Shown: positions 29,386 to 32,448 of the stretch, piece by piece
Position numbering within the stretch: position 1 is the first letter of the stretch
Layout of the letters: the number at the start of each line of letters is the position of its first letter
Assembly (NCBI GenBank): GCA_026026165.1
Contig: JAPEUD010000074.1
Location: 62,001-116,467, forward strand
Length of the DNA: 54,467 bases
Reading direction: 5' to 3'
Origin: Sarea resinae
Taxonomy: Eukaryota
Made by a program: the position numbers and the translations under genes
Notes under the pieces: model-generated
Databases searched by the model: none
Told to the model about the DNA's origin: nothing
The model's input: only the letters and a program-made list of their open reading frames with translations

Positions 29386-30651
29386 GGCCGGATTCATGGC
29401 GCTTGAAACTTTTTCTTCTAGAGCCCCGCGAGAGAGAGAGAAAGAGAGGAGAATGTAGGTGCGGGCAATGTGCGTGATAGGGCTGCTGTACGAGTAGAGT
29501 TGCTATCTACAGTAAAGAGAAAGGTGAGGTGAGGGGCCCGTTCGGCGTAGTGAGGCCGAAAGGCCGGAAGACAAAGGACTGGCGCACGCGGCTCCTGACT
29601 TATGAGACGTTCGACGGAGTTTGTGTACTTCTTCACTTTTTCGTCCAACGTCTACAGCTCCATCTCGTTCGGCCGAGGCAAGTTGATTCCGTTTCAAGGT
29701 AGTATCCATATCATTTCTCGCGCGTGAATGGTATATTGTCAGAAACGACGACGACCTGTGTACCTAGGTACGTATATGCAATGCAAGAAAAAGAAAAGAA
29801 CAAGGAAGAAACCCCCCCACCCCCCGCCCGACTCCAACCATCCATCCAATCCATCCAAACCAATTATGCCGCTAAAAATACCGACACGATTCTTCGTTCG
29901 GTCTCGTGGTCCCCGAACTCGAGACCACCACTGGGTTGTCACAGACTGCCAAGCTCGGATTTTATTTGGCGGATCTGGATTTGGCCATATCGAGATGGAC
30001 AAGCAAAGGAGAACGTGAAAAGGCGAATAGGAAGATGTGATATAGAAGAGAAATGAGTAGCGAGGGAAGAATTCGAGGAGATTGGAGCAGAGTGGTGAGG
30101 ATAAGGAGGGGGTGACCGGTCGACTTAGAAGACGCTGGCTTGGGATGCAGAGATTGAGCTTCCTTGCCATGCTTCAGATCCCCACTTTTGGTGAAAAGGA
30201 GGCTAGTACGTAAACGGGTACGTACACATGAAAGTGTATGAAATGTAGAGATCAATCAAAGGGGCCACTTGATTCGAGACAGAGGAGGCGATGGATGATG
30301 TCTCGCTCATAATGGAGGGGGGCAGACTCTAAGTCCGCTTTTTTGAAAGGGTCAGTATTATTTTGAGCTTTGTGAGGTTTGCGGGTGCATCCGGAAATGG
30401 GATGAGTAACTAGTCGCTTGACGTATGGCGAGAATGATGGATTCAAAGATAAGGAAGGCTAGCTGCCAGAAAGACTTTGACTAACAGGTTGCCCGAATTT
30501 GCTGCGAAGGCGCTCTGGTATGTTGGCCCTCTCATCGTGAGCGTTGCCCGCTGAATTGGCGAAAAGGAGTAATGCTGCAATTGAATCATCGCTCCTGTTG
30601 CATCATGACGCTGAAGAGTACAGAAGCAACCAAGCCAAACGCCGCAAATAG

Positions 30652-32448
30652 TCAGAGCAGCGTGCACGGATTGCCAGCATACCTGATCAAAGAGCAGATG
30701 ATGTTAGTACGGCTGAGCTGACTTCACCTCGATGAGACGGAAGAGGACACTAACCATCGCTGAGCCTCAATCCGTCGTACCCAGCGCGCCGTAATCTTCA
30801 CGCGTTCCCTTACGCTTCGAGTCGGCAGCAGCTCGTACTTCTCCTCGTCGGAGATAGGCAACACGCTGGCAAACCAATAAGGAAAGAGCGCGGGGTCATT
30901 AGGGGGGTGGCCATATGCTTCAGGCACGTGCTGATGCAACCAGGGCGCGGCATTGTTTTGCATCTTGGTGACGAAAGCGAGGCAGATATTAAGCAGCTCG
31001 CGCGTTGGAAGCCGATCCAGCTGCGCTAGAAGGTCTGTCTCGTCCGGGACAGGCTCACTCGATGTCTCAGCCGCTTCGAGCCTCTCCTCTTCAGCTAGAG
31101 ATATGTCGTCCACTCGCTCGATTTGCCCTACGGTGTATCCGTCCAACATATCCCAATTCTTGACACGGAAACGCGATACCCCCACGGTCTCTATCAAGCT
31201 GCGGCCATCCGCCAGCATTTGCAGGTTGACAATATGAAGCAGGGTCCCATATTGTCTGAAACTAGGGGTTCTCATCCCCTCTGGAGTTTCACCGGAGGGA
31301 TTGTACATGACCATACCAAATTTTCGATCTCTGCTTTCGATGGCGCGGCGAATCATGAGGCGGTACCTTGGCTCGAAGACATGCAGGAACGTAGGCATCG
31401 TTGGAAAGGAAAGCGTGCAGACGAAAAGAGGCGTGTCGATTCCGTCAGAAGGACTTTGTTCATCAATAGCAAGTGCCTCTTCCCGTGCCGCCACATGATC
31501 TGGACAGATGCTGCTGAGAATAGTCGCTAACCTCTTGTTACTCGGCTCTTGTTCGAGTGATGCAGGAATAGCCAACGTCCTCCGACAGATGGGACATATT
31601 TTTGAATGATCCAGCACCCGTGCTAGACATTTTCGACAAAAAGTATGACCACAGGATGTTGTAAGGGGATCGATCATTAGAGCATAGCAGACTTGGCAAT
31701 CAAGTTCACCCCGGGCCGCTTCTTTCAAGTGCTCCAGAACAGCAATGTCAAGGTGCTGAAAATCGTCCCCCTTTTCTGACACGACCTGGTACGAGACTTC
31801 AGATCCGTATTGTAGCTCTCCCATCTCGGCAAGCGTATAGGTCGCAATGAGCCGCCCACCGTGCAGGACTTGAGAACGTGGCGATTTTCTAATCAAAGAT
31901 TCATCCATATCCCACGAATGATGTACTTTTTCTTCAAGCAATGTCGGCGTATCAGTGGTAAGCTCGCGATATCGTTTTATCTCTGCCCCGAGCACGTCAA
32001 TGAGCTTGCTCAAAGTAACATCCAGGCTGCAATCGGCCATAGAATGCTCCTTCCCGCAAGTCGTGAACGGGCAGACGAAGCCTTGCTGTCGAAGTGGTGT
32101 GTTCGGATAGGATATATTTTCGCGGACATACGTCTCTGGCAGACATGCCCGGCACAAAGAGTTGCCGCATGGCAGGGTCGTCGGAGTCCTCAGCGGATAT
32201 GAGCAGTGTGGGCACTGTGCCAGTCGAATGACAGCCCTAGCATCGTGATGGGCGTCCAAAGCTCGGCGATCCCCAACGAACGGGACGGCTTCGCTGTTAC
32301 TCATGGAAACAGTCGACTCCGTGGCCAAGTCGTTGAACTGCCCTGCACCGTCCGTTGCGGCGGGTAGAGGCACCCTTTTCGGTTGTAAGAAGTTCATCCA
32401 GTGCAGTATTCGCGCTTGGCCGCTCGCATCTGTAGTCGAAGAGACCAT
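30652..32448 (-). CDS. Two-RING-finger + LON N-terminal (substrate-binding) domain protein, CrgA/LONRF-like; terminal intron 30683-30754; ends WYAGNPCTLL*
   Basis: CPHC...PCGNSLCRAC and CQVC...CGHTFCRKC...CPIC RINGs; PTFLHVFEPRYRLM LON domain; GTTAGT donor, CTAAC branch, CAG acceptor. Confidence 0.88.

Follow-up and report, generated by a model that had tools for sequence, protein, structure and literature searches.

Conserved, functional stop codon readthrough in fungi has so far mainly been found to add peroxisomal signals to metabolic enzymes. Stiebler et al., who worked in Ustilago and in HeLa cells, showed that a UGA followed by CU suffices for efficient readthrough and that an A and then a G in the next positions enhance it; UAA and UAG are less effective, and for fungi selenocysteine could be excluded (PMC4207609). 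Here we analyze the 3' end of a gene for a putative ubiquitin ligase on the minus strand of a stretch of Sarea resinae DNA (assembly GCA_026026165.1, contig JAPEUD010000074.1, positions 62,001 to 116,467), where a CaaX box, a UGA-CUA stop context and an in-frame hydrophobic extension follow one another. We refer to the whole stretch of 54,467 nucleotides (nt) as the window and number positions from its first letter. Comparison with orthologous loci makes it quite probable that programmed UGA-CU readthrough swaps a prenyl anchor for a transmembrane anchor on the product of this one gene.

Two neighboring bodies of work frame the locus. In Arabidopsis, one study predicts that readthrough adds a C-terminal transmembrane helix to 8 of 144 proteins, and reports 4% readthrough in vitro at the TAG stop of MUB6, a membrane-anchored ubiquitin-fold protein (PMC9293766). 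Within the protein family itself, a C-terminal isoprenylation site has already been described in Mucor CrgA, so the CaaX box as such is not new, and Fusarium CarS is given in the same paper as having no CaaX box (PMC5715946). Neither readthrough nor a membrane tail is described for CrgA or CarS in the open full-text literature that we searched. The animal proteins LONRF1-3 are ubiquitin ligases with RING and LON N-terminal domains, and to our knowledge they carry no CaaX box or membrane tail.

A CaaX box, a TGA-CTA stop and an in-frame extension

The open reading frame (ORF) at 30724..32448 on the minus strand encodes a protein with a RING finger (Pfam zf-C3HC4_2, PF13923; 1.9e-13 at residues 251-288) and a LON substrate-binding domain (Pfam LON_substr_bdg, PF02190; 3.2e-33 at residues 340-558). 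A further Cys-rich block at residues ~79-131, with invariant Cys columns in the homologue alignment, reads by inspection as a second RING, and the N-terminus is by eye not hydrophobic. The product is a CrgA/LONRF-type RING and LON protein and a putative E3 ubiquitin ligase, the ligase role being suggested by the RING domain. The elements at the end of the gene are as follows.

30755..32448, minus strand: exon 1, from the ATG at 32448 to the TG that opens the terminal Trp codon
30683..30754, minus strand: terminal intron of 72 nt, phase 2, GTTAGT ... TACTAAC ... CAG
30655..30682, minus strand: last micro-exon up to the stop, completing the Trp codon and then encoding YAGNP and CTLL
30655..30666, minus strand: CaaX codons, CTLL by translation of the sequence
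30652..30654, minus strand: first stop, TGA, the proposed leaky stop
30649..30651, minus strand: CTA directly after the stop (+4 to +6), which is the first extension codon (Leu)
30589..30651, minus strand: in-frame extension of 21 codons, the proposed transmembrane tail anchor
30586..30588, minus strand: second stop, TGA, followed by TTC and thus not in a leaky context

The terminal intron interrupts the Trp codon after TG. Its donor, at 30754, is GTTAGT; the branch site, a perfect TACTAAC, occupies 30709-30703, and the CAG ends at 30683. Beyond it, positions 30681-30586 translate as YAGNPCTLL*LFAAFGLVASVLFSVMMQQER, and exon 1 read on into the unspliced intron ends in ...AQRWLVSSSVSSR. The original prediction, made from this DNA alone, had proposed that UGA-CUA readthrough replaces the CaaX box with a hydrophobic anchor; its coordinates and readings, the unspliced end included, were all reproduced from the sequence. 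The extension consists of 17 uncharged, mostly hydrophobic residues followed by QQER, with a mean Kyte-Doolittle hydropathy of 2.33 over those first 17 residues. It places a single hydrophobic segment near the C-terminus of the extended form, as in a tail anchor when judged by hydropathy only. Within its 21 codons, ATG occurs only at codons 16-17. No RNA structure was found 3' of the stop (z = -0.29; 76 of 200 shuffles fold equally well). RNA matching the gene, a 216-nt contig at 31028-31243 and a 35-nt fragment, was present in one metatranscriptome run (6% of sampled words common), which gave no coverage of the intron, the stop or the extension.

Taken by itself, the arrangement in the window does not go beyond chance. 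CT comes directly after 113 of the 2008 TGA triplets in the window (5.6%), and one of its 34 ORFs of at least 150 codons ends in TGA-CT; in the 3' regions of orthologues, 9 of 117 control windows (~8%) reach the hydropathy threshold that we apply to extensions. Some accidental cases are expected per genome, and the question is therefore settled by the orthologues, whose conservation lifts the arrangement beyond chance.

Conservation across orthologues

A protein search returned 2028 homologues (E <= 0.001), and the nearest among the matches listed, at no more than 72% identity, belong to lichen-forming and related ascomycetes. Metagenome contigs were scanned with the homologue alignment: a relative is encoded in 449 of the 584 stretches that matched, and the 80 best were retained together with flanking sequence. 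These 80 orthologue loci and the window make up a comparison set of 81 sequences, of which 79 are evaluable, L030 and L073 being cut by a contig end. The end of exon 1 was placed by tblastn and continued either with an intron-less model or with a phase-2 donor and any AG up to 330 nt downstream. To count as an extension, a stretch had to run in frame for 11 or more codons before the next stop and to reach a mean hydropathy of 1.2 or higher across its first 17. Once duplicates had been removed, there were 60 distinct ends, 46 with an extension and 14 without.

The sequence anatomy, the conserved stop type, +4/+5 context, frame and hydrophobicity, and the coding-type substitutions across distant orthologues can be read directly from this set. 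An open hydrophobic extension follows the stop in 65 of the 79 evaluable sequences, and CT occupies +4/+5 in 65/65. Their stops are 64 TGA and one TAA: 61 sequences combine the CaaX Cys with TGA and CT, three have TGA-CTA without the CaaX cysteine, and one has TAA-CTA (L056). The 14 extension-less sequences end in TAA (5), TAG (2) or TGA (7), with CT after the stop only in L059. Among distinct ends, the first stop is TGA in 45 of the 46 that bear an extension versus 7 of the 14 that do not.

The nucleotides around the stop are conserved to different degrees. In the 46 distinct extension-bearing ends, positions +1 to +5 read T, G (45/46), A, C, T; position +6 is A in 24, C in 20, T in 2 and G in 0; +7 is G in 25/46 and -1 is A in 27/46. 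The 14 distinct extension-less ends have no positional preference around the stop. The CaaX-TGA-CTA arrangement that the original prediction expected in orthologues is therefore present in them, with TGA and CT as its core and a variable +6. The Cys at -4 is kept in 56 of the 60 distinct ends, and X is Leu in 37 of the 43 extension-bearing ends that retain this CaaX Cys; the annotated Xylona protein ends WYSGTCTVL.

Codon choice separates the constraint on nucleotides from that on the amino acid. The residue after the stop is always Leu and is encoded by CTN in 46 and by TTR in 0 of the distinct extension-bearing ends. Leu before the stop is encoded by CTN 17 times and by TTR 23 times (Fisher test versus Leu after the stop, 1.9e-10), and Leu inside the extension by CTN 110 times and by TTR 35 times (p = 3.6e-5 versus Leu after the stop). 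The codon CTG is used in 0/46 cases after the stop versus 28 of the 110 CTN codons inside the extension (p = 2e-5). These counts indicate that the nucleotides at +4/+5 are constrained beyond what the amino acid requires. Leu before the stop is TTA in 23/40, versus 10/145 Leu codons inside the extension, and TTA, or an A at -1, may be an upstream contribution to leakiness.

The extension is hydrophobic in the frame of the gene and in that frame only. The mean hydropathy of 42 distinct extensions is 2.04 in frame 0 versus -0.37 and -0.57 in the other two frames, in either of which 0/42 reach the threshold of 1.2; windows further downstream reach it in 7/39, 2/39 and 0/39. According to a study of C-terminal extensions, translations of 3' untranslated regions (UTRs) are hydrophobic in all frames owing to their U-richness (PMC10364623). 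Because hydrophobicity is confined to frame 0 here, an explanation from U-rich UTRs does not fit. Codon position 2 of the extensions is T in 52%, C in 32% and A in 5%, and position 3 is nearly even. In 18 related pairs (70-99% identical), the differences at codon positions 1, 2 and 3 number 67, 20 and 72, and the changed codons comprise 55 synonymous and 75 non-synonymous cases. Both the conserved hydrophobic extension and the synonymous-biased change that the original prediction had looked to are thus borne out, the latter with position 2 spared.

Sequence identity follows the same boundary. In 12 Pleosporales-like loci, nucleotide identity in the coding sequence upstream of the stop is 0.68-0.85; it is 0.60-0.64 in the initial ~50 nt of the extension, where the sole gap is of 3 nt, and drops to 0.2-0.3, with ragged gaps, further on. 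The 46 distinct extensions form 18 clusters at 50% identity or more over the first 15 residues, all with the same context, and the extension of the window is a singleton cluster. The 38 short extensions have a median of 17 residues in the hydrophobic segment and 7 in the tail. In L044, codon 12 of the extension is TAA, and in the near-identical L045 and L051 it is TAC (Tyr); the TAA could be an allele or an assembly error. A gene on the opposite strand was considered and rejected. Across the extension, the three antisense frames stay open in 11, 38 and 13 of 46 cases; the one mostly open frame arises because A is scarce at sense codon position 2, and an antisense gene leaves TGA-CT unexplained.

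Gene ends, long extensions and losses

In the intron-containing orthologue loci, a GT donor occupies the phase-2 position seen in the window. Five contigs, 2.4-2.9 kb in length, are intron-less. In four of them (L025, L034, L036, L068), Trp, a short linker, the CaaX box, TGA-CT and the extension are contiguous, and the stop is followed by 392-744 nt. In the fifth, L066, Trp, linker and CLVL lead into TGA TGA, and there is no extension. Gene models end at the Trp before the terminal intron in 246 of the 360 listed (P0002-P0361; 94, 73 and 79 of 120), because an intron that starts with GTAAGT, left unspliced, reads TGG TAA. Among the nearest-homologue models listed, only that of Xylona runs past the Trp into the micro-exon. 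The missed CaaX micro-exon looks like a systematic annotation error. Most of the listed models miss even the CaaX box, and the extension is either ignored or called as a separate small gene.

Eight loci carry a longer form of the extension, of 76-145 residues, with a second hydrophobic segment that has a shared motif ahead of it and basic residues behind it. Two of these, L061 and L067, compare over 125 codons as 27 identical, 35 synonymous and 63 non-synonymous, with 50/35/82 differences at the three codon positions. A profile of the eight long extensions detected 31 relatives at E <= 0.001 among 1.84 billion representatives, and all 31 are stand-alone ORF calls of 65-164 amino acids, because gene callers cannot cross a stop. 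A Pfam search with the eight extensions gave nothing above threshold, the best match being to Fuseless in one member (E = 0.0036). In the Penicillium brevicompactum records P0369, P0395 and P0396, the post-stop ORF is annotated as a separate 143-residue 'Transmembrane protein', and one record of the species is annotated 'putative ATP-dependent protease (CrgA)' (NCBI). These calls indicate that gene predictors see coding potential past the stop. Relatives from Eurotiales are among the carriers of the long form. The relative P0374 reads SLNSVLRLAVPLLIFCIIPLAF where L061 reads SLHSVL*LAVPLLVFCIIPLAL, with an Arg at the position of the stop and residues that match L061 and L067 on both sides of it. 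P0374 may be a natural stop-less relative, and we treat it as a lead and not as proof.

Traces of the second segment also occur next to short extensions. L046 has an extension of 18 residues and its sister L047 one of 102; what is left of the second segment in L046 lies in frame +1 (11.6 bits) and suggests that a frameshift truncated the extension recently. In the window, a small ORF that begins with SKSFWQLAFLIFESIILAIR lies at 30358-30480 on the minus strand, in the frame of the extension and three further stops beyond it. The match of this ORF to the second hydrophobic segment found in long extensions is weak (10.4 bits, E = 0.008 among 234 sequences), and the ORF may be what decay has left of a longer ancestral extension. 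Given the traces in the window and in L046, truncation of long forms may have produced the short tail anchors.

Clades were named by searches with representatives, with 120 models listed for each. The extension-bearing clade that ends in CSIL corresponds to Pleosporales (Parastagonospora, Alternaria, Bipolaris and others), where 39 of the 120 models listed have a C-x-x-x tail, CSIL or CNIL in 37. The main extension-less clade corresponds to Sordariomycetes (Coniochaeta, Colletotrichum, Verticillium, Metarhizium, Fusarium). Sordariomycete-like loci keep the CaaX box and have no extension, and the models from Verticillium (P0357) and Metarhizium (P0324) end in CRIL and CSIL after the terminal intron. 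The CarS-type models of Fusarium (P0346, P0351) end without a CaaX box, as does F. fujikuroi CarS (L0TM93), which is among the homologues, and loss of the CaaX box seems specific to a Sordariomycete subgroup. The CaaX cysteine is also gone from L039, L061 and L067 (RMVL, HSVL and FAVL), which keep TTA-TGA-CTA-GCC and a long extension, and a different clade has A, T, V or I as X (L028, L031, L035, L042, L014). Where the extension is strong, the prenyl signal seems to be decaying.

In a quick maximum-likelihood tree, the midpoint root has extension-bearing sequences to either side of it. The extension-less state requires 4 or more changes, and well-supported branches force 2 of these. The TGA-CT context is lost with every loss of the extension, the borderline L059 excepted. 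In its longer two-segment extensions, its cases of CaaX loss with the extension kept and the converse in Sordariomycetes, the evidence from these sequences goes further than the idea from which it started.

Proposed anchor exchange, rival explanations and known systems

The positions conserved here are those of the experimentally shown UGA-CU motif, so most ribosomes would stop at the CaaX box and a minority would extend. The form released at the UGA would end in CTLL, be geranylgeranylated and lie peripherally on a membrane, as a CaaX box with Leu in the X position leads to geranylgeranylation. The UGA-CU(A) context terminates poorly in fungi, and the minority of ribosomes would decode the UGA by a near-cognate tRNA and continue for 21 codons; yeast work indicates Trp, Cys or Arg as the amino acid inserted at UGA. 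In the extended form the CaaX box would be internal, and this form could not be prenylated, because a CaaX box works only at the C-terminus. The new C-terminus, ~17-22 uncharged residues with a 4-residue tail, would be a tail-anchor-type transmembrane segment. One mRNA would consequently yield the ligase in two forms, one prenyl-anchored and one integral to the membrane. The original prediction further proposed a third, soluble form by intron retention, which is hypothetical. We infer that readthrough takes place and how frequent it is, that the segment inserts into a membrane and into which one, that the CaaX box is prenylated, and that the protein is a ligase with both forms active. Termination at UGA-C can respond to physiology, and the ratio of the two anchors could therefore be regulated. 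The orthologue comparison is in favor of the original prediction on its two central points, readthrough at UGA-CUA and the replacement of the CaaX box by a hydrophobic anchor.

For a broader version of this proposal we hold the prospects to be evenly balanced. An old recoding switch would be common to several filamentous ascomycete classes, prenylated and integral ligases, the latter with one helix or a two-segment hairpin, would reside at different membranes, and lineages would have resolved the duality in every way. If so, lineages that lost the CaaX Cys, with the stop even changed to Arg, would have the membrane form only; those that lost the extension, as most Sordariomycetes have, would have the prenyl form only; and Fusarium CarS would have lost both.

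Several points weigh against anchor exchange by readthrough, or limit how the numbers should be read. The support for readthrough is comparative and comes from sequences only. The last exon was chosen by a search for Cys-x-x-x-stop, and L039, L047, L061 and L067 were placed by the motif TTATGACTAGCC at the stop, which is circular for their part of the context count and not circular for their long open frames. Both thresholds, for hydropathy and for length, were set after the data had been seen. The Fisher tests and counts treat kin sequences as independent and their p-values therefore overstate the case, the direction of the results on nucleotide versus amino acid constraint being nonetheless unambiguous in these sequences. 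The tree was a quick maximum-likelihood tree only, L059 is a borderline case, and the extension of L044 has only 11 codons. The intron-less contigs look like assembled transcripts, which is an assumption, as no poly(A) was seen in them. P0374 is a single ORF of 164 amino acids on a 1216-nt contig with no gene context, and a fused full-length form was found in 0/360 of the homologues listed and 0/31 of the profile matches. Finally, the tails of the short extensions have no consistent charge (net charge 0 in 16/38), and the target membrane therefore cannot be predicted.

This absence of a consistent tail charge, or of a sorting motif, in the short extensions also favors a different outcome of readthrough, in which the extension is a degron and the extended ligase is destroyed as an orphan tail anchor or the ligase level is tuned. 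When 3' UTRs encode hydrophobic C-terminal extensions in C. elegans or in human cells, SGTA-BAG6 captures these and they are degraded via RNF126 (PMC10364623). As these animal extensions are degraded as failed tail anchors, a hydrophobic extension is not automatically an anchored one, which again counts against the exchange. We nevertheless consider a degron unlikely. It leaves unexplained why UGA-CU is kept in 65/65 extension-bearing sequences and why extension-less lineages use any stop, and the same paper ascribes hydrophobicity in all three frames to U-rich UTRs, whereas here it is limited to frame 0. A two-segment extension of 76-145 residues with a shared motif resembles a conserved domain, three lineages have lost the CaaX Cys but retain the extension, and in one relative a sense codon takes the place of the stop. 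Translation of the post-stop ORF alone, from its own initiation or transcript, as a small membrane protein would agree with the 143-residue annotation in Penicillium brevicompactum and with the stand-alone profile matches of 65-164 amino acids. However, the frame is always that of the upstream stop, the hydrophobic segment begins at the first codon after the stop, no ATG is conserved, the starting Met of the called ORFs lies inside the first hydrophobic segment, and the invariant TGA-CT is unexplained; this makes separate translation highly improbable.

An alternative splice that removes or bypasses the stop would produce the extension without readthrough. Freitag et al. are said to have reported in 2012 that fungi add cryptic targeting signals by alternative splicing as well as by readthrough, and an intron does lie directly upstream of the stop. 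Yet no GT...AG pair surrounds the stop, use of the AG of CTAG as an acceptor puts the extension out of frame, CaaX-TGA-CT is contiguous in the four intron-less contigs that carry an extension, and the conserved positions are those of the readthrough motif, and we regard this route as very remote. An ordinary stop before a 3' UTR that is open and hydrophobic by accident would suit the window alone, whose context and hydropathy are not extreme, but its recurrence in 65/79 orthologues and 18 diverged clusters, with frame-specific conservation of coding type, brings the likelihood of chance close to nil. Across these sequences, the leaky context and the frame-specific hydrophobic ORF are gained, kept and lost together, and none of the rival explanations accounts for it.

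We found no prior description of this case in the full-text literature, where most subscription journals lie outside the coverage. The readthrough class, the protein family and the CaaX box of CrgA are known; the novelty lies in a conserved readthrough, spanning several classes, that would swap a prenyl for a transmembrane anchor. If true, the same short signal would be extended to anchor exchange on a regulatory ubiquitin ligase. This offers a hypothesis on where CrgA-type regulators act, and the natural variants with the extension only, the CaaX box only or neither are ready comparisons.

The gene product shares its RING and LON architecture with the carotenogenesis regulators Mucor circinelloides CrgA and Fusarium CarS (PMC5715946). 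Its extension resembles the BAG6 degrons in being a hydrophobic C-terminal stretch from a 3' UTR that looks like a tail anchor; those degrons are described as by-products of U-rich UTRs, hydrophobic in all frames and cleared, whereas the extensions here are frame-specific, conserved and tied to a leaky stop (PMC10364623). The Arabidopsis cases differ in that they concern plant genes with other stop contexts and helices conserved only within Brassicaceae, and the parts of that study available discuss no swap of a CaaX box for a helix (PMC9293766). The closest likeness is to fungal peroxisomal readthrough, which as described by Stiebler et al. (PMC4207609) and Schueren et al. 2014 (PMC4359377) likewise has a UGA-CU signal with no need for RNA structure, is conserved in orthologues and sends the product of one gene to two locations. 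In the peroxisomal case, however, a PTS1 tripeptide directs a soluble enzyme to the peroxisome, whereas here a transmembrane segment would bury the CaaX box of a putative E3 ligase.

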